Assembly: GCA_018816245.1 (NCBI GenBank)
Contig: JAHIVW010000003.1
Span: 470,834 to 534,833, forward strand
Direction of reading: 5' to 3'
Source of the DNA: Nanobdellota archaeon
GTDB lineage: Archaea > Aenigmatarchaeota > Aenigmatarchaeia > QMZP01
DNA: 64,000 bases
Below are positions 4,123-48,417 of this stretch, in pieces (within the stretch, counting starts at the first letter, position 1; each line of letters begins with the position of its first letter). A model generated the notes under the pieces. That model did not search any database and had not been told where the DNA came from. It saw only the letters and a list, made by a program, of their open reading frames with translations. The position numbers were made by a program, and so were the translations under genes.

Positions 4123-4186
4123 ACTGATTCTTCGTTCTTGAGACATTAAAATTGGTGATTTAAGCAGGGAAGACCAACTCCTTTTC

Positions 4187-5226: not shown

Positions 5227-7893
5227 CTACACCTGAAAGAAGTGCTCAGTAAAGGCAGGATAGAAATTATCCGGCTCGATTGTTTCGATGGTCAACACAT
5301 GGGTGAGTTGGTTGTTCCAGACCAGCTCGGTCTGGAGGTACTGGTTCCAGAGGGAAAGGGTTGCACTTGCTGTTGTATCCGGTTGAAGAGCATCAATAGT
5401 GATTTTACCCTGAACGGTTTCAAATAGTTGTCCTGGATCAATAACAAAGAACTTTTCTTCACCTTGTTGTTTGAACTGGATTTCATGGCATGTTTGTTTG
5501 CTAATGAATGTTTGGCATTCAGGATTGCCAGTAACCGTTAAGGTGCATGCAGGAGCAGGAGCAACATCGTACGAACATTGAATATCTGCTACAGTGGAAG
5601 GTTTCACAGTCGCCCTAAACGCGAGATCCAGCCCTATCACCTTTCTGTTCATGAGATTTTGGAGTTCTTCTCCGGGCTGGGTGTTTGCCGTAATGTCACA
5701 GGTGAGGGTGTCATCTACATTCATAAAGAATTGCGAGCAGTCAACCCGGTCTCCCCGGCGTTTATACAACGTGATATCATTGAGACGGTAGTCGAATGCA
5801 TTTTCATCAACAAGTGGATAGGTGTTCATCATTCTGATTTTCAATTTCAGATTTGCGTTCCCGCCGACGATAAATTCGATTTCAGGGATAATATAGACGG
5901 ATAAGATTTTTTCAGAGTCTGTTCGTTGGCTCGGAATCTCCAGCTGGGTGAGGTACATCTTTGACGTCCCGGGATAGATCATCCCGCTTCCGGCTTGCCA
6001 TTGTTTCTTGACAAGATTTGTTGCAGGATCAACAGCAAAAAGAAGGTCGCGAACTCCCAAGGCATAGGCATTTTCCGTTTCCGGACGGGCTGCTGATAAT
6101 ATTGAAGAAAAGGTGATCTTGTCGCCATCGCTAATCTTGCTGAAATCAGTTGCAAGATCAGTGAATTTCCAGTATATTGACTTCACACCAATAGCGCAAT
6201 ATCCTGAGATGTCGGCACTTTCTCCGCATACCTTGTCTGGACGGGATTGAATCGGTCCGATGCCGGTATTAAAGGCGATTAACGAATCACCCTGGAGATC
6301 AAAGGCAAACGGGATAAAGGACGCTCCTTCAACGGTTGTTGTTGTTCCAGCAGCAACTGCTGATACTCTTAGGATATAGGTTTTTTCTTGGTAGAAATCC
6401 TCTTCTTCGATACCGTATCTCTCTCGTAATGCGTCCTTGATATCGTCGAGTGAGAACTGAATGCTTGTTTGGATTGTTGTTTCATCTTCAACGAAATAAA
6501 CTGACTCATTCGTTATCGTGAACAGTTGATAAGGGATACATGCTCCTGTATCTGAAGTCTTAACGCAGCCGAGATAGGGATCTTCTGTGGTGGATTGAAA
6601 CATGAGTAAAACCTCTGCGTTCGTCTTGACAAAGGTTGGACTTGACCCTTTATTGTATATTTGAATCGGAACCGTAATGACCTGGTTGTTCGCATCGTAC
6701 AGGGGGTTTCCGGTCGTCTCCGGGGGAATAGTATCAATGTTAATACCGTCAATCCCGTCCGATGATTGTGGTGAATCAACAACAAGGTCTACCAATCCCT
6801 CTTTGCAGGGCGCTGTAATAACGTTGGGTGCGTTCTCCCCATCGTCTTTGCAGGAGAGCGTGAGTTTTTCTATCGACTCCGCAAGTTTCGCTCCTTCTTC
6901 GGTAGTGTAATTGACATGATAGGAGGTGCCGAACCAGTAATCATTTATATTGTATGAATCAAAAACATTTCTATTCTTTACCACGAGTTTCTGTGTTTGG
7001 TCAAACGAGAGCTCCGTTGGGGTAATCCCCCCATCTGACGGGACAATGTCCTTGTATCCATAGATCGCCGTCTGATTCGATAGTATGAGATAGGGATTTT
7101 GTGTCCCAACGATAAGCTCGTGTCCTCCATCAAAAATAGATGGGGTAATATATTTCGCCTGTGAAAATGGCTGGATGATTGTATCGCTTGTGGGTGTTTG
7201 AAGAGCGATCTCCGCTTCCCAGTATTGTCCCGGGTAGAGATTGCAGAACCCACCAGTTCTACATCCTTCTTCATCCCATGGTTGTGGTTCTGTTGTGAAT
7301 TCGCCGTTTTCATCTGTAAAAAGAGGATCTTCATCTGTTCCAAGTTCTATAATGGGCTCATCATCAAGATATGAGTCTTCTGGATAATTGTCAGGAACCT
7401 TGTAGACGGTAAACTTAATTCGTTTGTTTGTATACAGTTGCCCGCTTCCATCATTCAGCTCAACGTAGCCGGTGAATTCAATCGTCGGTAACGACCCAAG
7501 GGTAAAGATAGGCTCGTTGAGATGGATCACCCATCCCCGGTCAACATCGAACTGCATCTCATCAATCGCATTCCCAGTGAGCACCCGAATCACTCGGAGC
7601 TTATCATTTGGAAGAAAATGGAGCTGGTAATCCCGTGATTCGCCAACAGGAATAGACCGGTCGGTCTGGAAGGTTCCCACCGGCACACCGTTGATGGTTA
7701 CGGTAAATGTCGGAATGTCTTTTGAGCCGCAATTCTGCAGGGTCATCGCCCCTTCATCAAAGCCGACGATCTTGACGCATGAACTGTAGGGATCAAGAAC
7801 CTGCGGGAAATAAAGTGCCGCAAAGCTGCTGAGGACGATAAGGATAACCGCGAGTAAGACCACAGCGAGGATTGTTGACGATCCCTGTTTCAT
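5227..7893 (-). CDS. Large (888 aa) secreted or surface protein with a pilin-like (class III-like) N-terminus, function unknown
   Basis: N-terminus MKQG/SSTILAVVLLAVILIVLSSFAALYF (basic-x-Gly then hydrophobic helix). Rest is Thr/Ser/Asp-rich extracellular-type sequence. Co-directional with and immediately upstream of the small CGDG protein. Confidence 0.7.
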   Translation of the reverse strand: MKQGSSTILAVVLLAVILIVLSSFAALYFPQVLDPYSSCVKIVGFDEGAMTLQNCGSKDIPTFTVTINGVPVGTFQTDRSIPVGESRDYQLHFLPNDKLRVIRVLTGNAIDEMQFDVDRGWVIHLNEPIFTLGSLPTIEFTGYVELNDGSGQLYTNKRIKFTVYKVPDNYPEDSYLDDEPIIELGTDEDPLFTDENGEFTTEPQPWDEEGCRTGGFCNLYPGQYWEAEIALQTPTSDTIIQPFSQAKYITPSIFDGGHELIVGTQNPYLILSNQTAIYGYKDIVPSDGGITPTELSFDQTQKLVVKNRNVFDSYNINDYWFGTSYHVNYTTEEGAKLAESIEKLTLSCKDDGENAPNVITAPCKEGLVDLVVDSPQSSDGIDGINIDTIPPETTGNPLYDANNQVITVPIQIYNKGSSPTFVKTNAEVLLMFQSTTEDPYLGCVKTSDTGACIPYQLFTITNESVYFVEDETTIQTSIQFSLDDIKDALRERYGIEEEDFYQEKTYILRVSAVAAGTTTTVEGASFIPFAFDLQGDSLIAFNTGIGPIQSRPDKVCGESADISGYCAIGVKSIYWKFTDLATDFSKISDGDKITFSSILSAARPETENAYALGVRDLLFAVDPATNLVKKQWQAGSGMIYPGTSKMYLTQLEIPSQRTDSEKILSVYIIPEIEFIVGGNANLKLKIRMMNTYPLVDENAFDYRLNDITLYKRRGDRVDCSQFFMNVDDTLTCDITANTQPGEELQNLMNRKVIGLDLAFRATVKPSTVADIQCSYDVAPAPACTLTVTGNPECQTFISKQTCHEIQFKQQGEEKFFVIDPGQLFETVQGKITIDALQPDTTASATLSLWNQYLQTELVWNNQLTHVLTIETIEPDNFYPAFTEHFFQV

Positions 7894-12126: not shown

Positions 12127-12618
12127 GTGCTGAAAATGGAACGAAATCATGTCCCGATGTGCAGCTTGTGCAGAGAACCGATCACCAACTTTGTCTGCCA
12201 GGACCATTTAGCCCGGAATATCGCTCGCTGGCTCCCTGACGACGTGGTTCAGAGCTTTGATCGGTTCCACACCCGTCTTTCTCGCATGTTTTTTACGGCC
12301 GATTCGGTCGAGCAGCTCCCACTTGGGAAACAGGGGTGTACGTGCCGCACGCACGATCCCGTGTTGTGTGTGCACTGTTATACCAGGGAGGTCAATTCCT
12401 GGCTGACGCAGCGAAACCCTGGTCTCGCAACACAGTTTCGAGGAATTTTCTCCTTTGGATTCGCCCATGACGGGTCACCGCGATTCAGGCGCAACAATTC
12501 GTTGCGCCTTGATCACGACCCACCTGAGCATGAGTTTGGCCTGTGTGATGTGTGTGGTGAGTACGGTGATGAACTGACCCAGCAGAATGGACAGTGGGTC
12601 TGCCAGTCGTGTGAATAA
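12127..12618 (+). CDS. Cys-rich multi-zinc-ribbon protein, paralogue 1 (163 aa), function unknown
   Basis: CSLCx8CxxH at the N-terminus, CTCx7CVHC in the middle, C-terminal ribbon CDVCGEYGDELTQQNGQWVCQSC. Clear paralogy with the following two ORFs. Confidence 0.6.
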   Translation: MLKMERNHVPMCSLCREPITNFVCQDHLARNIARWLPDDVVQSFDRFHTRLSRMFFTADSVEQLPLGKQGCTCRTHDPVLCVHCYTREVNSWLTQRNPGLATQFRGIFSFGFAHDGSPRFRRNNSLRLDHDPPEHEFGLCDVCGEYGDELTQQNGQWVCQSCE

Positions 12619-12630: not shown

Positions 12631-12972
12631 ATGCAACAAGAACCTTCAGTGTGTCGAAATTGTAAGGTACCGTTTCGGCAGTTCATGTGCACCAGCTGTC
12701 TTTCGAGTAATATCAAGATACGGCTCCCTGGAACCGTGCATGCCTCGTTTGATATGTTTATACAAACGATGAATAAAGCTTATTACCAACAGGGCGCCCA
12801 GCTTGAACATTGTGTCCACTGTACACGACTTGTTCAAGCGCCTGTCTGCCAATTCTGTTACCTTGTCGAGGCATCGCGATGGTTGAAGGAACATGAAACA
12901 CATTCGCCACGATTCCTCCGATCACCGATGTTGCAAGCACCGCAAACCCCTGGAATCCAGGAAGGTGGGTGA
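12631..12972 (+). CDS. Cys-rich zinc-ribbon protein, paralogue 2 (N-terminal and middle modules only)
   Basis: CRNCKVPFRQFMCTSCLSSNIKIRLPGTVHASFDMF aligns with CSLCREPITNFVCQDHLARNIARWLPDDVVQSFDRF of paralogue 1. SPRFLRSPML aligns with SPRFRRNNSL. Ends with TGA two nucleotides before the next ATG. Confidence 0.6.
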   Translation: MQQEPSVCRNCKVPFRQFMCTSCLSSNIKIRLPGTVHASFDMFIQTMNKAYYQQGAQLEHCVHCTRLVQAPVCQFCYLVEASRWLKEHETHSPRFLRSPMLQAPQTPGIQEGG

Positions 12973-13109: not shown

Positions 13110-14945
13110 ATGCGCGGGGTGCTGCTTGCTGTTTTTCTTGCAAGTATTCTAACGATGGCAGGATCAGCAGCAGCACAAACGCCGCAACTCACGTTCATCC
13201 CGCAGCAATTTTCCGCAAACGCGAGTTTTCTGGTGTATGCCACAACCTCTGTTCAGGAACCAGCGCGCCTCACCTACTCTGTTGCTGGCTCCTATGGTGG
13301 CGGTGCAGCAGCGGCAACCGGGAGTATCCCGTTTGACGGAGACCGGTTCTTCTGCTATTTCTCCCACACTGATGCTGACGCAACCTGCGGCCCGAGCCCG
13401 TTCACGATCATCACAACTGAGTTCGGTCCTGACACCTTTTTCGACATGATTACCCTCTTCCAGACAACCGATGACCCTGGCACCGAGACCGCGTTCCAGG
13501 TTGCCACAGGATCCATTAGAATTGTTCCAACGATCTCAATCTCGGATAACGGTACGGTGAGCGTGCTGGCATCAACATTAACTATTATTGGCAATGCTGG
13601 TGCTCTGGTAAACGGGATGACAATTGAGATCTACCATGAGAACCTGACCCTAGTGAAGGTAATCGCTCCAACGTTCAACCAGATTACCGGGTTCTGGGCA
13701 ACAAACTTCCAACTCAAGCCGGGGAAGTACTACCTCTCCTTCTTCGCCCCGTCCCAAGCTGATCCAGATGATTTCGGTGGGGAAGTGTTCCCCATCACTG
13801 TGCCCGGGACAGAAGGAACGACCTGCACCTCCACTGCTGCAGTGGAAGGTAATCTCCCGCTTGTTGTTGAACCAGCAGTGTTTGATGCGGTTATTAGTGC
13901 GAACACACCGTTCACCAAAAAAGGATTCAAGATCACCAACCTCGGCGGGAGCACGCTTCCCAATATTTCAGTGACGATTCCAAGCGCGTTTGCGTCTTAT
14001 CTTTCCATTTCCCTTGGCAACAGCACGACACTGGCACCCAACGCGAGTATGCTCTACTCCGTGACGATTCTGAGTCTTCAGGACGCGGTGAGCATCAACG
14101 CATTCATCAACCTGACGAGCAACGGCACCTTGGTCGGGCAGATTCCTGTGACCATTGGAACGATCCTCCTTGATTCTGATACTGCCTCCTGTCCGGGGGT
14201 TGCTGGTGAATTCACCGTGACCCCGTCGACCTGGTTTGCCCAAGGCGTTGTTGGAGAAACACTCACCAAGGAATTCACCATCAAGAATAATGCCGACAAG
14301 GCCATGGAAGTCAAGGTCACCACGTCGACAAGCCTCACTGATGCGACGTACGAGCCCCTGACTGTGCAGGCAGGGAAGACTGACACACTTACAGTTACCC
14401 TTGAGCCAGACACCGCGAAGACCTACCAAGGAACCCTTTCGATTGGTGATGTCGCCGGGGTCATGGGAACACAGTCCATTGGGGTGAGTCTACAGGTGTT
14501 CGATGATGTGAGTTCGCAACTCGACGGGCTCCAGGAAGACCTTGATTATTTCGAGCTCTCCTTGTCTTCGACGACAGCGAATCAGTTGGCATCGGTCATC
14601 AGCGACATCCAGGACCTGATTGATGATGCACAGAACAATATTGCGATCAAGCAGTATGGTGTTGCAGCTGAGACCTACAGCATTGCCCAGGAGAAGTTCA
14701 ATTCTCTGGATGCCGTGAGTCCGTACCTTGGCACCGTGACACCAATCAATGGTGATACAGGTGAAGGCCTTGATCTCTTCACGTTCGTGATTCCTGCTGT
14801 TGTTGTTTTGGTCGTGCTTGCTGTTCTCATGATCTTCCTCAAGAAGCGGAAATCGAAGGTCTCCAAGGAAGAATCCATTCTTGAGGACGAGTTCCAGGAA
14901 GAGCCACAAGAAGAATCCAAGGACGATTTTGAAGAAGAGTTCTAA
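13110..14945 (+). CDS. Secreted surface protein (about 610 aa) with N-terminal signal peptide and C-terminal TM anchor plus acidic tail
   Basis: MRGVLLAVFLASILTMAGSAAAQ signal peptide. Thr/Ser-rich beta-type sequence. C-terminal FVIPAVVVLVVLAVLMIFLKKRKSK then an E/D-rich tail. Confidence 0.7.
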   Translation: MRGVLLAVFLASILTMAGSAAAQTPQLTFIPQQFSANASFLVYATTSVQEPARLTYSVAGSYGGGAAAATGSIPFDGDRFFCYFSHTDADATCGPSPFTIITTEFGPDTFFDMITLFQTTDDPGTETAFQVATGSIRIVPTISISDNGTVSVLASTLTIIGNAGALVNGMTIEIYHENLTLVKVIAPTFNQITGFWATNFQLKPGKYYLSFFAPSQADPDDFGGEVFPITVPGTEGTTCTSTAAVEGNLPLVVEPAVFDAVISANTPFTKKGFKITNLGGSTLPNISVTIPSAFASYLSISLGNSTTLAPNASMLYSVTILSLQDAVSINAFINLTSNGTLVGQIPVTIGTILLDSDTASCPGVAGEFTVTPSTWFAQGVVGETLTKEFTIKNNADKAMEVKVTTSTSLTDATYEPLTVQAGKTDTLTVTLEPDTAKTYQGTLSIGDVAGVMGTQSIGVSLQVFDDVSSQLDGLQEDLDYFELSLSSTTANQLASVISDIQDLIDDAQNNIAIKQYGVAAETYSIAQEKFNSLDAVSPYLGTVTPINGDTGEGLDLFTFVIPAVVVLVVLAVLMIFLKKRKSKVSKEESILEDEFQEEPQEESKDDFEEEF

Positions 14946-16372
14946 GCGAGCTCGTCCAGCGGCGTGTCCTTCGGTGATTTCTTTCTCAGGACGAAGACAA
15001 CCACAATGAGGAGAATAACCGCAATCGGGACAATGAAGGTGATAACAAAAGAGAAGATGATGTTGGATGCCCCCTTACCAGGTTCTTCCGCAGGAATTAC
15101 GTGTTGTTGGTCAACTGGTAATTTTTCCGTGGTTTCATTCTCCAAAGACGCCAGCTGGTTTTGGACAGCGCCGTACTGGTCGAGGTTTGATCCGTACTGA
15201 GCGTTTTCGTAACTCGTGTACCATGCATCTGCAATCTCGTTTGCCTGCTCTTTCTGATCAGCTGACAAATTGGGATCAGCTTGGAGTAAGGCAAGCTGAT
15301 GTTGAATGTCACTGACGAGCTCGTCAGTGGTGAGAGCAGCTGACGCCTTCTTGACCACATCGCCGCTTGTGCCGATCGCGGTAATACCATAGAATGCGTT
15401 CGGGTCATGTGGGGTGATCGTGAACGGCACGGAAACGAATTCCCCTGTACCGAGGGTCACGTTCTGCTCTGTCATAGAATAGGTCAAGCCAGGGAACTCG
15501 ACAAGCTTGATGGCGACCGTGAGTGGAGTCTGGCCGTTCTTGAGCTGCAATGAGAATTCAGCAGGCTGCTCGATCGGAACATCAAGGCTTTGCGGAAAAA
15601 GGGACATGGTGAAGGTTGGGGGAAGCTGTTGTTGTTCTGAAACGTGCAGGGTCGCGGTTGTTTGCTTGGTGCAGCTGGTTCCTGTGCACTCGGTCATGGT
15701 TGCCGTAACCGTGATCGAGTAATCGCCTTCTGTTGCTGGCGCCGTGACTGTGACAGGGATGCTGACGAGTGGATTGAAAAGGTCTGTTGTCACACGGGTT
15801 GTCTGCAGGGATGCATCGATTGCTGACGTGATACTCAGATCAAATGCTTGCTCTGCAAAAGACTCAAGGCGGAACTCAAGTGAGTGGGAGGTTCCTAGTT
15901 GTGCTGTAGGGTGGGAATCAAGGAACCCGATGGCAAACAGGTCGTTGTTCCCAAGCGGGTCGTTCGGTTCTTGGGGTGTGCCGATGTCAACATCGCCGAT
16001 GGTGGAAGAACACACCTGGAGAGTATAGGTTTTGGTGAATGCAAGCGCTGGTGCGGTTGCGGTGACCGTGAACGGGCCAGTGCAGGCAGTTTCATTGGCT
16101 TGGCCGAAGAAGCAGATCGGCACAATGACGGTGTTGTTGTCGTCGGTCCCGAAGTTGGCAGTGGTGAGGTCGTCCCACTCGGACGAGGCGCTGCTTTCGA
16201 GGGTGTAGTTGATCTTTTGGTCAGTGAAGACGCCGAGATCGTCGGGGAGGGTGATAGAGACACAGGAGACGTTCCCGGGCGGGACCGTGAAGACGAGGTT
16301 GTCGGTGAGGGGGAGGGCCTGGGCCACTGTTGGGAGAAGGAACACGAGGAAAAGGGAAATGATTTTTTTCAT
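14942..16372 (-). CDS. Secreted surface protein (476 aa) with signal peptide and C-terminal TM anchor. Last gene of the surface-protein operon.
   Basis: MKKIISLFLVFLLPTVAQA signal. C-terminal IIFSFVITFIVPIAVILLIVVVFVLRKKSPKD. Confidence 0.7.
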   Translation of the reverse strand: MKKIISLFLVFLLPTVAQALPLTDNLVFTVPPGNVSCVSITLPDDLGVFTDQKINYTLESSASSEWDDLTTANFGTDDNNTVIVPICFFGQANETACTGPFTVTATAPALAFTKTYTLQVCSSTIGDVDIGTPQEPNDPLGNNDLFAIGFLDSHPTAQLGTSHSLEFRLESFAEQAFDLSITSAIDASLQTTRVTTDLFNPLVSIPVTVTAPATEGDYSITVTATMTECTGTSCTKQTTATLHVSEQQQLPPTFTMSLFPQSLDVPIEQPAEFSLQLKNGQTPLTVAIKLVEFPGLTYSMTEQNVTLGTGEFVSVPFTITPHDPNAFYGITAIGTSGDVVKKASAALTTDELVSDIQHQLALLQADPNLSADQKEQANEIADAWYTSYENAQYGSNLDQYGAVQNQLASLENETTEKLPVDQQHVIPAEEPGKGASNIIFSFVITFIVPIAVILLIVVVFVLRKKSPKDTPLDELA

Positions 16373-16376
16373 GGGG

Positions 16377-19300
16377 TTAGGTAAACGTGACGGTTATTTC
16401 TTTTGGTTGTGCGGCAAAGGTGTCTGTTGTTTTATCATAAACGTCGACTGTAATGGTATATGTTTTAGCTTGATTAACAGGATAGCTACAAACATATTCA
16501 ATTATTTTTTGGGATTGAAAAGGCTCGAGAAGCGTATTGCCATGATTATCTTTTTCACAATCAATTTCCACTGCATATTCATGCGCTGTTTGGAAATTAT
16601 CAATTGTAAGGATGAAGGGAATGTCACGGTAGTTTGTAGAATCCGCTTCAGAAGCAAAGGTAAATGTTTCAGGAGAAAGGCTGAATTGGGGAACACAAAC
16701 GTCACCAGATGTCTCATTACATGGTTCACTAGAACTCGAGGTTCCGCTATCACCCGGCGACGTTCCCCCGCCGCTTGTTCCGCTCAGTTCTTCTATTTTT
16801 GCCGCAAGAAGATTGTCAATGACAGTTTGAAGTGTAGTGTCCGCGTTGGGTGGAGCCTGTCCAGCTTCAAGGAAGGCGATGAACTCCGTCATTGTCGGCA
16901 ACACGGCATTTAATTTATCCTTAACACTTGTCTTAGTTGTCTTCTCAATCGCGGCATTCACGGTTTGTTGCGCTGCTTTGAGGGCAGTTGCTGCATCAAC
17001 AGGTTTGGGAGAGGCAAGCTGCTTTGCCTTCCCAACAGCGAGGATCGCACTGTTGATCATCTCAGCAGCAGTCGTTGCCGTCACCGTCCCGTACCCGGAC
17101 GGAAGGCTGCTCCCACATTCTCCCCAAGCAGTAATACACTCGTCCTTTGGATCCGCAGTCCCGGTTTTTAAGCAGCCGCTCGTTGGGTCTCCGACACATA
17201 GGCAGACGGTGAGTGAGTCGACATACTCATTATTACAAATGAGCTTGAATGTTTTCGCGCTCTCCCCTTCAAATGCTGTAATTGCGTCAATATTTTTGTA
17301 CTCGCTAATCGGGATAAGCGATCCGTCCTCCTTCTGGATCATCGGGTTTTGGCACGGAACCGATGACTGATACTGGCTGACAAAGAGTGATAATTTCGAT
17401 CTTCCCAGGGTTGTGTAGCCCCCGCTTCCTCCAATAACAATCTGCTGTCCGACGTCGCCACCATACCCGCAGCACTTCGTCGCTCCTGGCACATCATTAC
17501 ATTTTGCGTACAAACTCGTCGTATCGCTCAGATCCTGAATAGATTCAATCGCATTCGCGAAGTTTCCGGCTGCCTGACCGAATTTCTGCGCCTCGGCTGA
17601 GATCACGTTCATGTTCGCCTGCATGTTCCCTATAATACCGTTGACCGACCCGAGGTTCACACACGCGAGCATGCCGTTGAAGCAGGAGAGATCCTTGCCA
17701 CAGTAGCCGGCGTCAAGCTGGTGCTGCTGGACCTGCAGGCAGGCTTCCATCTTCAGGAACTCGATCTCAATGTTCTCTGCATCAATCATGCTCTTCATCA
17801 TCGCAGACAGCATGTTGCAGATGCTGCCAATGGCAGTGAGCACAAAGGTCCCTGCGGCTGTATACGCGGTAATCGTGTTCTTGAATTCCCGGGAGCCGAG
17901 CTTGGACGTCATCTTCGAGATGCCGCTGTGCACTGCAGCATCATTGTTGCCGGCGATCTGGCCCTGGAATTCCGACGGCTTCAAGGCATCATAGAACGCG
18001 TATCCGATCCCTACGATCGTGAGCGCGGTTGCAGCAATCGATGCGTACAGGCAGAACTTCTGCAAACTGATGAGCTTCTGGGAAATTTCAAGGATGTCCT
18101 GGATTTTCTTCTGGATGTCTTGGATGAGTTCCTGGGTAATGTCAAACAAGGATGTGAACGTCTGCCGCACCTTGATGGCAGCATAGTCGTCGGTGAGCAG
18201 CAACAATTCCCGTTTTTGGGCGCCGTTGTTGTAGCTGATCAAAACCGAAATGTCGTTCGGCTCATAGGTGTTTGTATCACCCTTTGAACACTCAGGATCA
18301 GCAGGGATCGCAGCCGTACAGTTGAGGGTGAGGTTGCTCGTCCCGAACACGAGGACCTCCTGCTGGCAATAGATGTTCTGGGTCGATTCCCCGTCAAGGG
18401 TTCCGAAGATGTTCTCGATCTGGGTGCCTGACGGCTGATTCTTGATGTGTGCCTTGATGTTCACGAAGTGGGGGATCTCGCAGTTCTTGAAGCTGACCGG
18501 CTGGTTCGGATGATCAACAACAAGTTTGATGTCCCCTTTCTCCTGGCAGCTCCCAGCAATGTTGTCAACCCGATGGTAATCACAGTAGTATGCGTCTCCG
18601 TACATAGGATCCTTGGCACAGGGACAGTCAACGCAGGAGTTTGCTGCGCTTTCCCCGTACTGCGGCTCGCACACGCCGTTGTTCGGGTGGTATTGGGGAA
18701 CAAGGATGAGATCAGCAAAGGATGCGGTCAGATGCTGCTGGATGATTCCAGACGGATTGATATAGGAACCATCAGGATAGGAAATAGTAAGGTTCAGGGT
18801 ATTGGGACCAAGGGTTTCATAGGGCAGCGAACATTCAGGGATCGGAGGAAGGGTAAGTTGGCACGTCAAGAGGCCAGTCGGGCTGCCAACAACAACTTCC
18901 TTGCAGGTGATGGGATACGGTTGTGGTTCTCCATTCTTCATGTAGAAGACCGCAAGGATTTCTGATTCAGCGGGCTTGTTGATGATTTGGGTAGTGAGAT
19001 TGATCAGATGGGTCTGCGTACAGTCAGACACGTTCCGCGGGGACACGGAAAGGACAGTCAGGCCAACGTCATTGATGAGCTTGCATTGGGTAATTGCATC
19101 ACAATATTCACCAGCCCCAGCGCAGCCGCAGTCAACGCAACAGGTGGCGGCGCTTTCCCCCTTCTGGTTGTCACACAACCCGTCACCGCAGAGCGATGAA
19201 GGAACTGTGACATCGGAGAAGCCGCTCTTCAGATCCTTGGTAATCGTGATCGGGCCATCACTAAAGCTCGTCTTGAAGGTGATGCTGTTGCTTTGAATAA

Positions 19301-20930
19301 AGTAGGTGTTTTCTTTGCTGTAATCAGGAAGGAAGAGGGGGATGCTGCAATTGTACACATGATTTGGTGCCCCGCCAACACAGGTGATCGAGCCCGTAGT
19401 GGCCCCAACGGTTTCGTTCTTGTTCTCAATGATTTTCCCCAGTTGGTACTCAACATTCGTCACCGAAAGGTCCGTCGGCGGATTGTTGATTTTGGCAACA
19501 ATATCAATTGTGTCACCGGCGGGGTTGTAATCAGGAATAAAGGACGTGACCGAGAGCACGGACAATGAAATCGTTGCCTCTGATGAACAGACCTTGGTTC
19601 CGGCATTGCAGAAGAATCCTGACGGACAGCTGCAGTCGTAATTGACGGTGATATCAGGAATTACGGCAGTGAGTTCCTTGAGGATCGTGGTTGCCCCATC
19701 AGTGTAGGGGATGGTTGTACTTACCTTATTGGAATTGATAATGTAGCTTCCGAGCCCACATGACACCTTTGATGAGAGTTGTGTAACACAGGTGTAGGTG
19801 TTCCCGATGCCTTTTGGGCAGCTCACGGAGAACTGTTTCGCACCGAAGGAGAGGAGTGCAGTGATTTGTGCCGGGAGACTTGCTGGTGGATTGTTGATCT
19901 GGACGGTGACGTTGACTGGCACGGCCTGGTTACAATTAGTAACTGGGGAAACCAAGGCAGAGGTCACGGACATGGTGATGTCATTGGGGTTCTTGCAGCT
20001 GCCGGTTTCCGGATCACCGCCTGCAATATCACAGTAGGCGTTCAGCCCGCACCCGCAATCATAACAGCAACTGGTTGCGTCTTCACCGAGACTGCCTTCA
20101 CAGGTTCCGTCGCCGCAGGTGAAGGACGGGTTCTTGTTCAGGACAATAGGATTGCCGATTCCGCTTGTGGTTTTTGGAAATACGAAAAAGAAATCTTTAC
20201 TGATGGCCGTGATCGTGGTGCTGCTCGGTTGAGCAGTTTCAAAGCTGGGAAGTTCAATTTCGTTGGTGTCAGCGCCGATGCCAAACAAGGAGAGCGCACC
20301 GCTAAAGAGGACGCTCTCTGCCCAATTGAAGGGAAGCATCTGGAAATTGCTGATAAAGTTCTTTGTGGGGTTGAGGAACTGGGTATCAGCAACATAGAGA
20401 TTTGCATCCGGGAGTTCGTAGTTGAAGGTTTCAAATGCATTGTAGCTGATCCGGTTCACCGTGTCCCAGAACCCAAGCCAGGCAACCTGTCCTTCCTGAT
20501 CTTTCAATTTTACGAGCGTGAGAAGATTGGCTGTTTGGGGATAGGTTGGCCCTCCTACCTTTTGTGAAATATCATTCCAGAGGAGTTCAGTGTCGACGAA
20601 GGAATCGAAAATAATCGGCTCAGCTTGAACACATTGTGAAGGATTCAATGCCTTGCATTTGTAGAGGAAGATTTTCTCGATCGAGTGCGCCAAGCTGGCG
20701 CTGTTCACGGTGATGCCGACCTTGACCTTGCTCCATGAAATGTCCGAGGGGTCGTGGCTAACCGTAATCTGCCGGTTGATGAGTTTCGAGGGGGTGACGA
20801 TCAAGGAGTCCTCTTCATTCCCGTTAACAAAGAGATGGATGGTTGCGGCACTGGCCATGGGCATGGAGAGGACCAAGATGCTCGCTGCCACCGCAAAGGC
20901 AGGAATCAGGAAGAGGGAAACATTTTTCAT
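16377..20930 (-). CDS. Giant (about 1517 aa) secreted protein with three CGDGxC...CxDC(G/P)C Cys-rich modules. Probable start MKNVSLFLIPAFAVAASILVLSMPMASA at 20930.
   Basis: Signal peptide. Modules at roughly 20045-20125 (TCGDGTCEGSLGEDATSCCYDCGCG), 19110-19195 (LCGDGLCDNQKGESAATCCVDCGCAG) and 18615-18680 (GVCEPQYGESAANSCVDCPC). Long Thr/Ser-rich beta-like regions. Confidence 0.75.
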   Translation of the reverse strand: MKNVSLFLIPAFAVAASILVLSMPMASAATIHLFVNGNEEDSLIVTPSKLINRQITVSHDPSDISWSKVKVGITVNSASLAHSIEKIFLYKCKALNPSQCVQAEPIIFDSFVDTELLWNDISQKVGGPTYPQTANLLTLVKLKDQEGQVAWLGFWDTVNRISYNAFETFNYELPDANLYVADTQFLNPTKNFISNFQMLPFNWAESVLFSGALSLFGIGADTNEIELPSFETAQPSSTTITAISKDFFFVFPKTTSGIGNPIVLNKNPSFTCGDGTCEGSLGEDATSCCYDCGCGLNAYCDIAGGDPETGSCKNPNDITMSVTSALVSPVTNCNQAVPVNVTVQINNPPASLPAQITALLSFGAKQFSVSCPKGIGNTYTCVTQLSSKVSCGLGSYIINSNKVSTTIPYTDGATTILKELTAVIPDITVNYDCSCPSGFFCNAGTKVCSSEATISLSVLSVTSFIPDYNPAGDTIDIVAKINNPPTDLSVTNVEYQLGKIIENKNETVGATTGSITCVGGAPNHVYNCSIPLFLPDYSKENTYFIQSNSITFKTSFSDGPITITKDLKSGFSDVTVPSSLCGDGLCDNQKGESAATCCVDCGCAGAGEYCDAITQCKLINDVGLTVLSVSPRNVSDCTQTHLINLTTQIINKPAESEILAVFYMKNGEPQPYPITCKEVVVGSPTGLLTCQLTLPPIPECSLPYETLGPNTLNLTISYPDGSYINPSGIIQQHLTASFADLILVPQYHPNNGVCEPQYGESAANSCVDCPCAKDPMYGDAYYCDYHRVDNIAGSCQEKGDIKLVVDHPNQPVSFKNCEIPHFVNIKAHIKNQPSGTQIENIFGTLDGESTQNIYCQQEVLVFGTSNLTLNCTAAIPADPECSKGDTNTYEPNDISVLISYNNGAQKRELLLLTDDYAAIKVRQTFTSLFDITQELIQDIQKKIQDILEISQKLISLQKFCLYASIAATALTIVGIGYAFYDALKPSEFQGQIAGNNDAAVHSGISKMTSKLGSREFKNTITAYTAAGTFVLTAIGSICNMLSAMMKSMIDAENIEIEFLKMEACLQVQQHQLDAGYCGKDLSCFNGMLACVNLGSVNGIIGNMQANMNVISAEAQKFGQAAGNFANAIESIQDLSDTTSLYAKCNDVPGATKCCGYGGDVGQQIVIGGSGGYTTLGRSKLSLFVSQYQSSVPCQNPMIQKEDGSLIPISEYKNIDAITAFEGESAKTFKLICNNEYVDSLTVCLCVGDPTSGCLKTGTADPKDECITAWGECGSSLPSGYGTVTATTAAEMINSAILAVGKAKQLASPKPVDAATALKAAQQTVNAAIEKTTKTSVKDKLNAVLPTMTEFIAFLEAGQAPPNADTTLQTVIDNLLAAKIEELSGTSGGGTSPGDSGTSSSSEPCNETSGDVCVPQFSLSPETFTFASEADSTNYRDIPFILTIDNFQTAHEYAVEIDCEKDNHGNTLLEPFQSQKIIEYVCSYPVNQAKTYTITVDVYDKTTDTFAAQPKEITVTFT

Positions 20931-20934
20931 AGGA

Positions 20935-22788
20935 TCATGCGTCCAGTTCTGCCCACGTGACCGTGCAGGCCTTGTTTGCTGGGAACGGGGCCTCAAGGAC
21001 CGGACCGATACCGCAGCGCTTCAGGACTTCGGAGAGGATGATCATGCGGGCGACTGCTTCTTGTTCATTTCCGAAGCTGAACCCTAAATAATAGGGGAGA
21101 TACACGTAAAGGTCTTTGCCGTCCAGATCTTCGGTGATTTGGTAGTTTGTGGTCATGGCACCGTACATGGTGAAGTCCTCCTCGTCAAGGAGGAGGCCGT
21201 TGACGAAGTACTGACCAGGACTGATCTTGGGAACCGTGATCTGGGAGGTCAGACCGAACTCTTGGAGGAAATGCTTCCCGTTCTGGGACTCCAGGAACAG
21301 GTGCACTACTTCGGTGGGATACTTCGTCCGGATGGGATTGATATCATTCGTGAAGATCTGGTACGTCTCTGAAACGGTATTGTTCGTGATGAACACGTCA
21401 TAGAAGTTCAGGCGGATGCTTGGTTGCTTCTGAAGCGTCGCATGAACATCGACAATCTCAGCAGGATCTTTGTTCTGGAGGTAGTCTTCATAGTTTGCTG
21501 CAGTAATGCGCAACGGGCCGACACCACAGGGAACAAGGTTTGAGAATGTCCCGGTTGCATCTGTCTTACCCAAAGTGCAGCCAAGGTAGGTGACGGTTGC
21601 GTCCTTGATGGGAGAACCATCAGTTGTAGAAACGGTAATGGAACTGTAGCATAACGAGGAGGCACAGAGCGCCTGCTGTTCTTCAGGGATTGGTGACACG
21701 ATCGTTGCAGTGAGATCGGGTGTATTCTCCTTGATGGTGACATCCACAGCGAACTGGAAGATGTTGTCGGTCAAGGAATCCTTGACGCGGACAATGGCAG
21801 GATACGTCATACTATATTTCACGAGAATGGGATCACTGCGACACTTTCCTGTAAGCGGGACAAGTTCAGGAATGACCACCAAGGTGTTGGGATCAACCTG
21901 GAAGGTGCTGGGGTTCAGAGAGAACCCGTCCGGCAGGTGGAAGGAAACATCAAGCGCTTCGTAGATCTTGCCATTGATTTCAGGAAGCCCGTACTTTGGT
22001 GATGCAGAACTGGTGAACGTGTTCTGCGGAACCTTGTTTGGTAAATAGGTGTGGGCCAGGGTCACGGCAATTCGTTCCTCGACCGCTGTCCTGAACTCAT
22101 CATATGTCTTTGTGATATGATCACTACAATCGTACGTCGTCACCAGAAGTGGTGTGGTTTGGACTTTGTTTTCAAGTGGTGAAAGTGCCATGCTAATGAT
22201 GGTGAAATGTGCGAGGTAGGTCTTCTGCTTGTCACTCGTGACGTAGTGTTCAGCGAAGTCGAGTACTTCGCCAAAGGCTGTTGGAACCGTAACAGAGAAT
22301 GGTTTGTTGATGGCATACCCTTCGACACTCACGGGAAGCTGGACCGTGACCGCGATTTCCCCGCTTCTAATCGTGCTGTCAACAAGCGGCGAGCCAGTGA
22401 CCACGTTGGGAATGGTGAGTGACTCAATGGCACCGGGCAGGTTTGCTTCAAGATAGTCTGCCACGCCGACACGGAAGTTGCTTTCAACAGGCGGGATCGA
22501 GACAGCACCCTGCTTTGACCAATAGGTTACTTTCCTTCCAAGGAAGGAAACACCGTCTTGTGTTGGTGTCAGGAGTCCGCCGTTCCGGGAAAGTTTCTGG
22601 AGCGTGTCAATCACGGCACCATGGATCACGTTCTCGATGGTGGCTTCAACGGTTCGTTGCTTCTCAGCAACCCCAGAAGGAACTGGTGAGGGAGTCAGGT
22701 CGCCAGCGAGGAACGCATAGGCGATCACGACGACCGCAACAATGATGATACCGAGAATTGCAAAGAATTCGGTCTGCCCGACCCTCAT
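20935..22788 (-). CDS. 617-aa secreted or surface protein with a pilin-like (class III-like) N-terminus. First gene of the surface-protein operon.
   Basis: MRVG/QTEFFAILGIIIVAVVVIAYAFLAG (Arg-x-Gly followed by a long hydrophobic helix). TATA box tatatatat at 22811-22819, about 25 nt upstream. Confidence 0.7.
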   Translation of the reverse strand: MRVGQTEFFAILGIIIVAVVVIAYAFLAGDLTPSPVPSGVAEKQRTVEATIENVIHGAVIDTLQKLSRNGGLLTPTQDGVSFLGRKVTYWSKQGAVSIPPVESNFRVGVADYLEANLPGAIESLTIPNVVTGSPLVDSTIRSGEIAVTVQLPVSVEGYAINKPFSVTVPTAFGEVLDFAEHYVTSDKQKTYLAHFTIISMALSPLENKVQTTPLLVTTYDCSDHITKTYDEFRTAVEERIAVTLAHTYLPNKVPQNTFTSSASPKYGLPEINGKIYEALDVSFHLPDGFSLNPSTFQVDPNTLVVIPELVPLTGKCRSDPILVKYSMTYPAIVRVKDSLTDNIFQFAVDVTIKENTPDLTATIVSPIPEEQQALCASSLCYSSITVSTTDGSPIKDATVTYLGCTLGKTDATGTFSNLVPCGVGPLRITAANYEDYLQNKDPAEIVDVHATLQKQPSIRLNFYDVFITNNTVSETYQIFTNDINPIRTKYPTEVVHLFLESQNGKHFLQEFGLTSQITVPKISPGQYFVNGLLLDEEDFTMYGAMTTNYQITEDLDGKDLYVYLPYYLGFSFGNEQEAVARMIILSEVLKRCGIGPVLEAPFPANKACTVTWAELDA

Positions 22789-22810
22789 GGGTATAGAATT
22801 GCTTCGGCGC

Positions 22811-22819
22811 TATATATAT
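22811..22819 (-). promoter_or_regulatory. TATA box for the surface-protein operon (leaderless-type spacing to the start at 22788)
   Basis: ctatatatatt lies 23-31 nt upstream of the ATG of the 617-aa gene. Confidence 0.4.
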
Positions 22820-22822
22820 TCT

Positions 22823-25182: not shown

Positions 25183-26079
25183 ATGCTCGTCACAGTTGGG
25201 TCGCTCGCATTCGATGACATCACAACGCCGTTCGGCAAAGCAACCCGGGCCATTGGGGGAAGTGCAACCTACTTTTCACTCGCAGCATCGCTGTTTACCA
25301 AGGTCGGGGTGATCGCCAGTGTCGGGACTGATTTTCCGCAGGAGCAGTTGCAGGTCATGCGGCAACGCGGGATTGACACGAGCGGCGTCATCACCACAAG
25401 AGACAAGACGTTGCACTGGAGCGGATATTATGAGTACGACATGAACGAGGCACACACGAAGAGCATCGACCTCGGACCGTACGCGAACTTTGTGCCCACG
25501 GTTCCTGAAGCGTATGCGACTGCCGAGTATGTGTTCCTGGCAAACATTGATCCGAAAATGCAGCTCCAGGTGTTGGCAGGAATCAAGCATCCGAAGCTTG
25601 TTGCTGTGGACACAATGAACTTTTACATCGAGAAGGATCCGCAGGCAGTGAAAGATGTGATCAGGAAAGTTGATATTTTCTTTTGTAATGAGTGGGAGGC
25701 GCGCGAGTTGTTCCAGACCCCGAACCTGGTGAAAGCAGGAAAGGAAGCGCTTGCCCTTGGCGCGCGCTGGGCCGTGATCAAGAAAGGGGAGCACGGGGTG
25801 TTGCTGCTCTCCAAGGACTCGATTGTGTCGCTTCCTGGCTACCCGCTCGAGAACGTCGTTGATCCCACGGGCGCGGGTGACAGTTTTGCCGGCGGGTTCA
25901 TGGGCTACCTTGCGAGCACCGGTGATCTGAGCGAAGCTGGCATCCGGCGTGCTGCGGTCCACGGTACGGCGGTTGCGTCCTTTACTGCCGAGGGATTGGC
26001 AACGAAACGAATTAGTGAACTCACCAATGCAGAAGTGGACCAGCGAATTGCGGCGCTGAAACAGCTTGTGCACTTCTAA
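25183..26079 (+). CDS. PfkB-family carbohydrate or nucleoside kinase (ribokinase-like)
   Basis: Gly-rich N-terminal motif (GGSATYFSLAASLFTKVGVIASVG) and C-terminal DPTGAGDSFAGGF (PfkB signature 2). Confidence 0.8.
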   Translation: MLVTVGSLAFDDITTPFGKATRAIGGSATYFSLAASLFTKVGVIASVGTDFPQEQLQVMRQRGIDTSGVITTRDKTLHWSGYYEYDMNEAHTKSIDLGPYANFVPTVPEAYATAEYVFLANIDPKMQLQVLAGIKHPKLVAVDTMNFYIEKDPQAVKDVIRKVDIFFCNEWEARELFQTPNLVKAGKEALALGARWAVIKKGEHGVLLLSKDSIVSLPGYPLENVVDPTGAGDSFAGGFMGYLASTGDLSEAGIRRAAVHGTAVASFTAEGLATKRISELTNAEVDQRIAALKQLVHF

Positions 26080-27182
26080 GCGTCAACGCGGACGCCATCC
26101 CGGTCCAGGGTTGCATCAACCACGTAGATATTGTGTTCCTTCCAGCTGGTACGGACCTTGTTGGCGGTTTCTTCGTCAAAACAAACACCGATTCCGCAGT
26201 CGCCGCCGCCGGCACCGGAGAGCTTTCCGGCAGCACCCGCGGCGTTGGCAAGGTCGCTCATCTGTTTGAGCTCGGGGGTTTCGATGTTCACCCCGGAAAC
26301 GGTCCCGAGTTCACGGAGTGCGTCTTCATTGGTTTGGAGGGCGGCAAGGAACGCCTTAGTGTTATTGTTTTTCATTGCAGTTACCGCCTTTTTTGCAGCA
26401 GCAGCAACCGTTGTGATTGCATTGGTGTACGCGTCAGGTGTTGCTGCTTTGTATGCCTTCATTTGTTTCACCATGGTCGTGGTTGATGCGGACTCTTTCG
26501 TCCACCCAATGAGTAAATGGAAGGTGTCGGAAATAGAAAGTTCGTTCACAAGAAATCCTTCCCATTGTTTTGTCACAAGTTCATTTACTGATTGCCCAGA
26601 ATCGAGTTTTGCACTCAGCCACGTGGGATTGCTTTGGTATTCGAAAATACCTCCATACGTTGAGGCAGCAACATCGAATCCAGAACCGATTTTTCCTTGT
26701 GTCTTGAAGTGCGTCGCAAGGCTCAGTTTGTACACGAGATCCTTTGTTTCACGTTTTGAAATATCATGGCCGTGGAACTGGAGGATGGCACCGACAACAG
26801 CGACAACAGACGCTGCAGAGGAACCGAACCCGACTTTTCGTTTTTCACCGTCGATTTCAACAACAGTTTCATCGCCCCAGGTTCGAAGCCTGAACGGTTT
26901 ATCGTTTCCAAGATACGACGTGACGGTTTCAATGGCACCTTTCGTGAACATGAGTTTGTCACGTGTTGTTTGCTCTGTTGTATTCCATGTCAGGGTTCCG
27001 TTTTTTAGGGTGCCGGTTGCCTCAAGACCAAAGTCATCGAGTTTGACATGAATGGTTTCTGCTTCTTCAATTTCAACATACACTCGTTTTGAAATCGCCA
27101 TGACGAGTGCGGGGTTGCCGGGTTCGAGGATGGACCACTCACCAGACAACATGAGTTTGCCAGGAGCAGAAATGCTGGTCAT
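26076..27182 (-). CDS. Phosphomevalonate kinase, ERG8/bacterial type (GHMP kinase)
   Basis: Start MTSISAPGKLMLSGEWSILEPGNPALVMAI resembles the PMK N-terminus (GKLYWAGEYAILEPG type). GHMP Gly/Ser-rich loop further in. The ATG follows the stop of the upstream decarboxylase gene (verified on the reverse complement). Confidence 0.65.
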   Translation of the reverse strand: MTSISAPGKLMLSGEWSILEPGNPALVMAISKRVYVEIEEAETIHVKLDDFGLEATGTLKNGTLTWNTTEQTTRDKLMFTKGAIETVTSYLGNDKPFRLRTWGDETVVEIDGEKRKVGFGSSAASVVAVVGAILQFHGHDISKRETKDLVYKLSLATHFKTQGKIGSGFDVAASTYGGIFEYQSNPTWLSAKLDSGQSVNELVTKQWEGFLVNELSISDTFHLLIGWTKESASTTTMVKQMKAYKAATPDAYTNAITTVAAAAKKAVTAMKNNNTKAFLAALQTNEDALRELGTVSGVNIETPELKQMSDLANAAGAAGKLSGAGGGDCGIGVCFDEETANKVRTSWKEHNIYVVDATLDRDGVRVDA

Positions 27183-27183
27183 A

Positions 27184-28173
27184 CTAGAAGAGGTGCTCCT
27201 CCACCAACCGGGCCGCTTGTCCTGGTTTGCCGATGATTGTTTCCCTGACGCCGGGGATTTCTTGCAATCGTTTCTGGAGTTCTGGGACGTCTTTCTCAAG
27301 ACAGAACACTTTCACTTGCGGTCCAGCGTCCATAGTGAAGTAGGATTCAAGACCTTCGTCGCGCCAGTCCTGGATCGCGTGCATGATCGCGATTGTTGTT
27401 GGGTTCCAGTACAAAATAGTTGGGATAGTCGTAATCATGGTTGCGTGCATTTTCAATCCGTTTCGTTCTGCGGTTTCTCCAACTTTCGTGAAGTCTTTGT
27501 CGCGGATTCCTTGGCGAACGACGTCGAGATCTGCAGGAACCGTGTCAAGCCAGCCCTGATACATAGGCGACGTCTTGATGGTTTGTGACATGCCAGCTCG
27601 GCTCTTGATTTTTTTCTCACCTGTTGCGGTGATTGCAACGATCATGCGGAATGCTGGCCAGTGGTCCGGTGTGGCAACTTGTTTCCCGTAGGAATCGTCG
27701 CCATCTGCTTGTTCACCTTTCAACCATTCAATGAAGCCTGCGCCGACGGATCGTGATGCAGAACCAGAACCGCGTCGGGAAAGAATGGACAGTTGTTTTT
27801 CATCGAGGTCGAGGCCAGCTGCTTTTGCAGCTGCAACAGAGAGCGCGGCAAACCCGGATGCAGACGAGGCGAGGCCAGCTGCCGTCGGGAAGCTGTTTTC
27901 TGATGCGACCTTTGCTTTCTTGTTGATGTTCGCCATGCCGCGGACTAAATCGAGATGTTTGATAACTTGGTCAAGTTCCTTTCCTTCAACCGATTCTCCA
28001 TTCATGGTGAGTGTGTCGGCTTCAAAGTCGCCGAACTCGACAGTTGTTTTGGTGTGGAGGCCGTCCACGGTCATGGACAAGCTCCCGTTGTTGGGAAGCA
28101 TGAGATCTGCGTCTCGCTTTCCCCAGTACTTGATCAACGCAATATTCGCGTTTGCAATCGCCGTTGCTTTCAT
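27184..28173 (-). CDS. mvaD: Diphosphomevalonate decarboxylase family (MVD/PMD homologue)
   Basis: N-terminus ANANIALIKYWGKRDADLMLPNNGSLSMTVDG is the MVD family signature. Confidence 0.8.
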   Translation of the reverse strand: MKATAIANANIALIKYWGKRDADLMLPNNGSLSMTVDGLHTKTTVEFGDFEADTLTMNGESVEGKELDQVIKHLDLVRGMANINKKAKVASENSFPTAAGLASSASGFAALSVAAAKAAGLDLDEKQLSILSRRGSGSASRSVGAGFIEWLKGEQADGDDSYGKQVATPDHWPAFRMIVAITATGEKKIKSRAGMSQTIKTSPMYQGWLDTVPADLDVVRQGIRDKDFTKVGETAERNGLKMHATMITTIPTILYWNPTTIAIMHAIQDWRDEGLESYFTMDAGPQVKVFCLEKDVPELQKRLQEIPGVRETIIGKPGQAARLVEEHLF

Positions 28174-29198: not shown

Positions 29199-29210
29199 AC
29201 AACAGGGTAG

Positions 29211-29230: not shown

Positions 29231-29246
29231 GCCCGTAGATGGGGGT

Positions 29247-48398: not shown

Positions 48399-48417
48399 TC
48401 TCAACCTTTGTGATCTC

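Follow-up and report, generated by a model that had tools for sequence, protein, structure and literature searches.

The 64-kb window analysed here, the whole stretch of 64,000 nt from contig JAHIVW010000003.1, encodes three proteins on the minus strand (A, B and C) and a convergent one on the plus strand (D). They are best explained as the distal part of a conserved surface-appendage cluster of about 11 genes (s1-s7 and A-D) of Aenigmatarchaeota-type DPANN archaea. With A as a pilin-like protein, B as an adhesin rich in immunoglobulin-like (Ig-like) domains and C and D as stalked anchors, the products would together make up a module for surface adhesion that is linked to a type IV filament; we judge the chances of this interpretation to be evenly balanced. 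The general plan of pilins, adhesin and S-layer-like proteins is already predicted for archaeal pilus loci. New here are the lineage-specific family, a module of eight cysteines (8-Cys module) and a helical hairpin.

Export or anchor signals were found in all four proteins (4/4), as were even-numbered sets of conserved Cys. A dedicated cell-surface structure, as proposed in the original prediction from the sequence, is the best reading of the locus; the further wording as a fibre or sheath was overstated.

Gene order and distribution of the cluster

Three open reading frames (ORFs) of 617, 1517 and 476 amino acids (aa), corresponding to A, B and C, had been placed on the minus strand behind one TATA box, and both the coordinates and the tight junctions agree with this. 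Gaps of 4 nt separate A from B and B from C, and the stop of D overlaps the end of C by 4 nt. The product of B is identical to NCBI record KKA90_03645. The description of the products as three giant secreted proteins fits B only: C is a type I membrane protein, and A is either pilin-like or anchored through its N-terminus. D belongs to the conserved cluster together with A, B and C. Its predicted transmembrane segment and charged tail were both recovered, the tail being acidic, and its length of 610 aa had to be corrected to 611 aa from the ATG at 13110.

The TATA-like box (AATATATATA) lies 2 nt past the stop codon of the gene for class I lysyl-tRNA synthetase (LysRS), upstream of A. Since its distance to the start codon falls in the usual range of archaeal TATA boxes, it is, as read from the sequence, the probable promoter of a nearly leaderless A-B-C transcript. 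A scan of the region for bacterial-type promoters and terminators was uninformative, the organism being an archaeon.

A word-based search with B revealed 25 homologues, and phmmer against 1.84 billion representative proteins detected 211 at E<=1e-3, 124 of these at E<=1e-30. Scanning one genome per GTDB species with a 6-sequence alignment as query revealed 17 loci with a relative of B, nearly all of them in Candidatus Aenigmatarchaeota. The order A-B-C<-D was kept in the 17 GTDB loci and in six homologue-derived contigs; overall it stands in about 20 contigs of metagenome-assembled genomes of the Aenigmatarchaeota type. A and B are adjacent at every locus with enough sequence, and their genes often overlap.

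At about 15 loci, seven small genes lie directly upstream of A on the same strand, and every contig of sufficient length shows the order s1-s2-(s3)-s4-s5-s6-s7-A-B-C<-D. The products have approximate lengths of 125 (s1), 200 (s2), 158 (s3), 165 (s4), 365 (s5), 165 (s6) and 170 aa (s7), and none of the seven showed a Pfam match. Four of these families display characteristic N-terminal motifs (a slash marks the predicted cleavage position): RKG/QMFI in s1, RKG/AIELSLGF in s2, RKG/QSEIMEY in s6 and RA/QSS or RG/QSS in s7. Counting A, the motif [KR][GA]/Q (or /A) is found in five families, in each of them immediately ahead of a long hydrophobic helix. When the s5 profile served as query in a word-limited database search, one that missed known members, no protein of the 555-kb source contig was among the matches.

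Two further genes accompany the small block in relatives. In related loci L001 (6556-7149, minus strand) and L003 (6495-7124, minus strand) a gene of about 200 aa stands on the opposite strand between the small block and A; it may be a local regulator, its N-terminus being basic and its C-terminus probably a winged helix, and no counterpart was found in the window. In related loci L002 (1-3273, minus strand) and L007 (1-2914, minus strand) the small pilin-like block has, immediately upstream and on the opposite strand, a gene of ~2050 aa whose product shows a weak MG2 domain.

The class III-like N-terminus of protein A

The N-terminus of A consists of the leader MRVG, followed by Q5-T-E7 and a hydrophobic helix over aa 5-29 with a 22-residue run. 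The hydrophobic segment right after the cleavage-site motif (FFAILGIIIVAVVVIAYAFLAG) reaches Kyte-Doolittle values up to 3.1, and such a segment follows the motif likewise in all orthologues of A. Comparison of the 18 distinct orthologues with an intact N-terminus revealed in every one (18/18) the motif [GA]/Q-x-E-[FILV] and, after it, a stretch of 22 or more hydrophobic residues. Position -2 is K or R in 15/18, position -1 is G or A in 18/18 and position +1 is Gln in 18/18; the +1 Gln is likewise found in the s1, s6 and s7 families. The class III-like start proposed for A is thus not a one-off, being present in all 18 orthologues and in four small upstream families in relatives. The Epd pilins of Methanococcus maripaludis are processed at KGQV, KGQV, KGQL, KGQI and RAQI, and EppA, the dedicated peptidase for these pilins, needs the +1 Gln (PMC4371748).

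Beyond its N-terminus, A has a Pro-rich linker, an alpha/beta domain (aa 38-185) and tandem transthyretin/Ig-like sandwiches (aa 372-617), and its 8 Cys are all invariant across the family. A structural model built from 6 sequences (mean predicted local distance difference test, pLDDT, 58.7) shows a helix at 4-27, a Pro-rich break and a helix at 38-68 packed on the alpha/beta domain (79-185, pLDDT ~80). Foldseek matched the sandwiches to transthyretin-like domains, Gram-positive pilins/adhesins and SlaB, with low template-modelling (TM) scores of ~0.1. PDB sequences searched with a profile of A yielded marginal noise only.

A paralogy comparison revealed no similarity of A to an 888-aa protein encoded at 5227-7893 on the minus strand. 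The start of that protein (MKQG/SSTILAVVLL) is ambiguous between a class III-like N-terminus and a plain signal anchor. It has no Pfam match and lies directly upstream of a 112-aa protein (4886-5224), which combines a signal peptide, a module CGDGICHYQERGICSTDC related to those of B, a transmembrane segment and a basic tail; the pair echoes A and B on a small scale.

Cysteine modules and overall architecture of B

B contains 62 Cys and begins with a Sec-type signal peptide (aa 1-28, ASA/A). An N-terminal beta domain (29-265) is followed by four units of Cys knot plus Ig-like domain (266-922), a helical region (928-1131) and a variable, Cys-containing C-terminus that ends in a beta-sandwich. 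In the AlphaFold2 model of residues 1-1200 (25 sequences, mean pLDDT 77), the N-terminal beta domain was modelled confidently (pLDDT ~90).

Alignments of 15 and 25 homologues revealed four modules in B, three full 8-Cys units and one 4-Cys half unit. The original prediction had named three, whose coordinates were confirmed; the count has to be raised by the half unit, which lies between modules 1 and 3. The full module follows the pattern C-G-D-G-x-C-x(8-10)-C-C-x-D-C-x-C-x(3-9)-[YF]-C-[DN]-x(4-10)-C. Regular-expression matches for three modules were found at 20055-20117, 19128-19190 and 18618-18677, and none in 30 shuffles of the window. Half-module 2 (YDCSCPSGFFCN...C) is complete in the most divergent subfamily (P0024), and module 4, which has 8 Cys in most homologues, has lost two of them in the B of the window. 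Across 25 homologues the Cys, Gly, Asp and Glu positions of the modules do not vary. An Ig-like beta-sandwich with 2-4 conserved Cys of its own comes after each module.

Submitted alone, modules 1, 3 and 4 matched no Pfam family at E<=10 and no NCBIfam model. Half-module 2 gave a weak match to EGF_4 (E 0.0013, 19 bits against a 27-bit cut-off), and one homologue of B has a weak precomputed Notch/LNR match. Two findings had been named in advance as speaking against the prediction, an assignment of ordinary Sec signal anchors and a match of the module to a well-described domain; neither was made, since the domain-database search matched the CGDGxC module to no described domain. The module is used elsewhere in the genome as well, since the 112-aa protein carries one.

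The helical region of B

In the model, the helical region comprises helices at 928-983, 1013-1073, 1080-1090 and 1093-1131, which form a hairpin of ~90 Å; the alignment shows a conserved motif QHQLDxGxC...SCF...C within it. The two long helices (928-983 and 1013-1073) are joined by a Gly-rich loop of low confidence. At the end of the first one, residues 959-983 form a hydrophobic segment with Kyte-Doolittle values of 1.2-2.85 (19-mer window), found at the same position in 15/15 homologues; the start of the second is only mildly hydrophobic. Beyond the helices B is Cys-rich, and homologues have PKD or Big domains there, which makes both ends of B look extracellular. On the model, the simplest reading of the hairpin is a membrane anchor, either two-pass or re-entrant, with a coiled stalk.

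The hairpin also admits another role. B might be delivered to a host and act in the way of alpha-helical pore formers or of the stalks of fusion proteins, its hydrophobic-tipped hairpin inserting in the host membrane and opening the cytoplasmic bridge on which DPANN symbionts rely. B would then be presented by a type IV filament that A and the small pilins had primed, and the ~90 Å hairpin would start the cytoplasmic connection with the host. We consider such a host-contact device, and this course of events, very unlikely. In its favour are the conserved hydrophobic, Gly-rich segment at the hairpin tip with heptad-like helices flanking it, the extracellular appearance of both ends, a marginal match of the B profile to influenza HA2 (E 0.004) and the DPANN lineage; the cultivated DPANN archaea are all described as contact-dependent ectosymbionts (PMC11291902). 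However, an ordinary anchor, placed in the membrane of the cell itself, explains the hydrophobic segment equally well, and B gives no sign of a protease site, of a motif for trimerisation or of homology to pore formers. The HA2 match reached just 17.8 bits over a helical, compositionally biased stretch, and structure searches of the PDB and of viral models gave only Ig-like strings.

The likeness of the QHQLD helical region to HA2 (residues 24-154) was dropped as compositional noise, since no structure search supports it; fusion proteins were absent from the Foldseek PDB and BFVD lists for B.

Searches with the whole of B against Pfam and NCBIfam revealed no match at E<=0.1, including DUF2341, vWA, A2M, thioester and MG2, and a profile search of PDB sequences revealed no relative, giving marginal noise only. 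In the PDB and among viral models, the only Foldseek matches of B were tandem Ig-like strings (alpha-2-macroglobulin family, KIT, antibodies, phage Hoc-like proteins and herpesvirus gC) at TM ~0.07. The top PDB matches were A2ML1, complement C3/C5 and CD109, and the 2050-aa MG2-domain gene stands by the small block in two related loci; both would suit B as an alpha-2-macroglobulin-like protease trap, or as some other non-adhesive Ig string with unrelated membrane proteins for neighbours. We find this scarcely credible: repeated beta-sandwiches alone account for matches at such TM scores, B is without the Pfam domains A2M, thioester and MG2, and the strict synteny of A-B-C-D indicates that the genes work together. 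An alpha-2-macroglobulin identity of B was rejected, the Foldseek matches being generic tandem beta-sandwiches with low TM.

The stalked membrane proteins C and D

C has a Sec signal (AQA/L), a beta-sandwich ectodomain, a helical stalk (aa ~345-415), a transmembrane segment (434-466) and a basic tail. D shows a Sec signal, an Ig-like/ASH-type domain (aa ~372-452), a helical stalk, a C-terminal transmembrane segment and a very acidic tail that ends in EEEF. The paralogy comparison revealed no similarity between C and D, and their profiles matched no S-layer chain in the PDB, giving marginal noise only. Pfam and NCBIfam scans of A, B, C, D and the isolated modules detected only a generic Ig-like domain in D, a weak CarboxypepD_reg and the weak EGF_4 match.

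The cytoplasmic tail of the D family (14850-14942, plus strand, in the window; also in related loci L001, L002, L003, L006 and L007) is conserved, with a basic stretch and then a very acidic run, which usually ends aromatic (EEEF, DEDFY or KEEFES). From its sequence it looks like a docking motif for a cytoplasmic partner. Just upstream of D on the plus strand, two small adjacent ORFs of 163 aa (12127-12618) and 113 aa (12631-12972) are rich in Cys pairs of the CxxC type and have no Pfam match.

Candidate pilus machinery and a proposed model for the cluster

The claim that a FlaI-like ATPase and a FlaJ-like membrane protein are encoded elsewhere in the window was borne out by a secretion ATPase gene (46549-48255) and a T2SSF fragment (63426-63941). 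The ATPase scored 373 bits with the NCBIfam FlaI model, below the cut-off of 550, and is a candidate for driving assembly in trans. The 10 kb that follow the right end of the window contain a second T2SSF gene and a Pilin_N-type pilin (MRKGISPIIAAILLVAI...), the latter a weak sub-threshold match (E 0.0014, 19.9 bits against a 25.2-bit cut-off). The two T2SSF genes, at and beyond the right end (L004 12865-21063), encode 292 and 288 aa. Because the ATPase gene stands alone by SecY (46549-49953) and the T2SSF genes and the pilin lie elsewhere, the pilus machinery is dispersed in the genome. No Peptidase_A24-type or other prepilin peptidase gene was detected among the window ORFs scanned.

Archaeal pilins are sometimes encoded apart from their machinery, and archaeal pilus loci combine minor pilins, a large 'adhesin' with a signal peptide and C-terminally anchored, Cys-containing 'S-layer-like' proteins (PMC4858521). 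'System 1' of the archaeal type IV filaments, found in methanogens and DPANN archaea, has a platform split in two genes and many pilins (bioRxiv 10.64898/2026.04.22.720090).

From these genes we infer the cleavage of A, the assembly and the function of the cluster as follows. A would be cut after Gly4 by a prepilin peptidase of the EppA/PibD type, and its N-terminal helix would join small pilin-like subunits in a short type IV filament or pseudopilus, assembled by the FlaI-like ATPase and a split FlaJ-type platform encoded in trans. A and B would be made in a fixed ratio, their genes being 4 nt apart here and overlapping in relatives, and A may hold or position B. The rigid, disulfide-stapled Ig string of B would project the conserved N-terminal beta domain as a binding head, with B tethered via its helical hairpin. 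C and D, as stalked type I proteins, may give the assembly support or anchorage in the manner of the 'S-layer-like' proteins of archaeal pilus loci. The whole would probably serve to attach the cell to a host or to a surface.

Several observations weigh against an adhesion module tied to a filament. The A of the window (M-R-V-G) has Gly at -1, Val at -2 and Arg at -3 and, because of the Val, fails a strict rule of [KR] at -2. Neither A nor the N-termini of s1, s2, s4, s6 and s7 matched the Pfam families Class_IIIsignal or Pilin_N even at E<=10. The first helix of A is broken by a Pro-rich stretch, in contrast to the continuous alpha-1 helix of known pilins, and the model is poor or absent over aa 185-372, beta-sandwiches appearing from 372 on. 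B has a conserved hydrophobic segment of its own, so it need not travel on a filament and may sit in the membrane of its own cell without ever being on one. The ATPase gene lies 24 kb and the platform gene 41 kb from the cluster, an association by co-occurrence only, and across 22 related loci no FlaI or T2SSF match was found within 10 kb of B, nor at any locus a peptidase gene within 10 kb of the cluster. Searches for the s1-s7 block by tblastn and with family hidden Markov models found none in the window or 10 kb past its right end, and gene calls for 6 kb past the left end revealed no block of this type.

Some of the same observations would suit an envelope or S-layer-like complex built without any filament, a stalked coat or canopy on SlaA/SlaB logic. 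An uncleaved N-terminal signal anchor would fix A in place, the hairpin would do so for B and the C-terminal transmembrane segments for C and D, and the [KR][GA]Q motif would be a mere anchor feature. We hold this possible and rather doubtful. Each of the four proteins does have its own membrane-anchoring segment. C has the plan of SlaB (signal peptide, beta-sandwich, helical stalk, C-terminal transmembrane segment), and at 1517 and 476 aa B and C resemble SlaA and SlaB in size. SlaB (8qox_B) is also among the Foldseek beta-sandwich matches of A, and the cluster is without assembly ATPase, platform and peptidase and, here, without a small pilin-like block nearby. However, [KR][GA]/Q before a helix is kept in five families, for which an ordinary signal anchor would give no reason, and the Foldseek matches are generic, with TM ~0.1 (0.12 for SlaB against A). 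C and D show no sequence similarity to any solved S-layer protein, and the family is rare (211 representatives); a main envelope protein would be expected in all genomes of the lineage.

Little is known of the means by which DPANN archaea recognise their hosts and keep hold of them; to our knowledge, the Aenigmatarchaeota have no cultivated member. The cluster offers concrete candidate genes for an attachment apparatus of this lineage, namely five pilin-like families, B and two stalked anchors, and it adds an undescribed 8-Cys module and an N-terminal domain of ~240 residues to the building blocks of archaeal surface proteins. If the proteins formed an S-layer-like complex, the cluster would define the envelope of the lineage. 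Neither that reading nor the filament-linked adhesion module would alter any general principle. A host-contact role would make B a new kind of archaeal membrane-insertion device, built of Ig domains, 8-Cys knots and a helical hairpin.

Other genes of the window

The positions of the features described above are collected in Table 1.

Table 1. Positions of the cluster genes, their elements and pilus-related genes in the window.
Feature	Position	Strand	Description and basis
A	20935-22788	-	ORF, 617 aa, start MRVGQTEFFAILGIIIVAVVVIAYAFLAG; large pilin-like protein
B	16377-20930	-	ORF, 1517 aa from ATG; Sec-exported, Cys-rich, adhesin-like
C	14942-16372	-	ORF, 476 aa; type I membrane protein
D	13110-14945	+	ORF, 611 aa; type I membrane protein, convergent on C
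TATA-like box	22811-22820	-	AATATATATA; 22-31 nt before the ATG of A; sequence read
Class III-like N-terminus of A, aa 1-29	22702-22788	-	MRVG/QTEFFAILGIIIVAVVVIAYAFLAG; motif comparison, 18 orthologues
Cys module 1 of B, aa 268-316	19983-20129	-	8 Cys, PSFTCGDGTCEGSLGEDATSCCYDCGCGLNAYCDIAGGDPETGSCKNPN; alignment and pattern search
Cys half-module 2 of B, aa 429-452	19575-19646	-	4 Cys, VNYDCSCPSGFFCNAGTKVCSSEA; alignment
Cys module 3 of B, aa 577-620	19071-19202	-	8 Cys, PSSLCGDGLCDNQKGESAATCCVDCGCAGAGEYCDAITQCKLIN; alignment and pattern search
Cys module 4 of B, aa 748-799	18534-18689	-	6 Cys, HPNNGVCEPQYGESAANSCVDCPCAKDPMYGDAYYCDYHRVDNIAGSCQEKG; alignment and pattern search
Helical hairpin/bundle of B, aa 928-1131	17538-18149	-	AlphaFold2 model and alignment
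Hydrophobic hairpin-tip segment of B, aa 959-983	17982-18056	-	FCLYASIAATALTIVGIGYAFYDAL; Kyte-Doolittle and model
112-aa type I membrane protein	4886-5224	-	one related module CGDGICHYQERGICSTDC; called as gene in public record
FlaI/PilB-type secretion ATPase	46549-48255	+	Pfam T2SSE, PilB3_C; adjoins SecY
T2SSF (FlaJ/TadC-type) platform gene, 3' part	63426-63941	-	runs off window

The remainder of the window is archaeal housekeeping, with genes for fibrillarin, L31e, eRF1, SecY, aminoacyl-tRNA synthetases, wyosine enzymes and mevalonate-pathway kinases, which marks the organism as a DPANN-type archaeon. Three genes of the GHMP kinase family lie in a row with overlapping ends (26076-29762, minus strand) and form a compact mevalonate-pathway block; one of them is diphosphomevalonate-decarboxylase-like, and another encodes a 530-aa kinase that carries a long extension at its N-terminus. 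The ORF of an ATP-dependent DNA ligase (1123-4188, minus strand) measures 1021 aa, against 999 aa in the public gene call, and contains a LAGLIDADG_3 homing-endonuclease domain (aa 594-655) between the N-terminal and adenylation domains; judged by sequence, the insert is probably an intein. A second, different Cys-rich surface protein of the window (1145 aa, 41104-44541, plus strand) has a Sec signal, fn3/Big-type domains, a C-terminal transmembrane segment and C-terminal Cys-rich repeats with three stretches matching the MopE 'putative metal-binding motif'.

Comparison with known systems

The cluster resembles the Epd locus of Methanococcus maripaludis, which also combines small pilin-like genes with large accessory or adhesin-like proteins in a cluster of about 11 genes, and the cluster families share with the Epd pilins the [KR][GA]/Q motif with its conserved +1 Gln. 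Unlike Epd, the cluster places Glu at +3, not +5, and has no ATPase, platform or peptidase inside it. B, C and D are families of their own, no homology to any Epd protein or Pfam pilin family was detectable, and the small pilin genes are missing from this window. The source genome has two T2SSF genes, as does system 1, the Epd type, with its split platform.

In bacteria, the minor-pilin/PilY1 operon (fimU-pilVWXY1E) and the GspH-I-J-K tip complex of the type II secretion system (T2SS) combine small pilins, an enlarged pilin-like protein and a large adhesin. The operon logic is alike: about four small pilin-like proteins, an enlarged A (compare GspK/PilX) and a Sec-exported non-pilin B (compare PilY1). 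There is no homology to these systems, B has a hydrophobic helical hairpin and no beta-propeller, vWA or DUF2341, and C and D have no counterpart in PilY1 or GspHIJK systems. PilY-type adhesins have been discussed for archaeal loci, and arCOG05616, arCOG07037 and arCOG05471, among others, comprise predicted Ig-rich 'adhesin-like' and C-terminally anchored 'S-layer-like' proteins of unknown function by pilin genes (PMC4858521; bioRxiv 10.64898/2026.04.22.720090). The present cluster likewise sets a large many-Ig protein with a signal peptide and Cys-conserved membrane-anchored proteins beside pilin genes. It differs from those proteins, by their description, in its Aenigmatarchaeota lineage, in 8-Cys knots that alternate with Ig domains and in the helical hairpin.

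As in SlaA/SlaB of Sulfolobales, a large outer protein is co-encoded with a partner of ~475 aa, and the plan of C equals that of SlaB. Unlike SlaA/SlaB, the present proteins show no sequence similarity to these, have pilin-like neighbours and include a B with its own anchor. The module of B differs in its pattern from EGF, LNR, disintegrin, MopE and DUF4215, and no full module reaches their models. It shares with the EGF-like, Notch/LNR, disintegrin-type CGNG and MopE-type units the compact build of 40-50 residues with 8 Cys and conserved Gly, Asp and Glu and, as with small disulfide-rich extracellular modules, it serves in B as a spacer between beta-sandwich domains.

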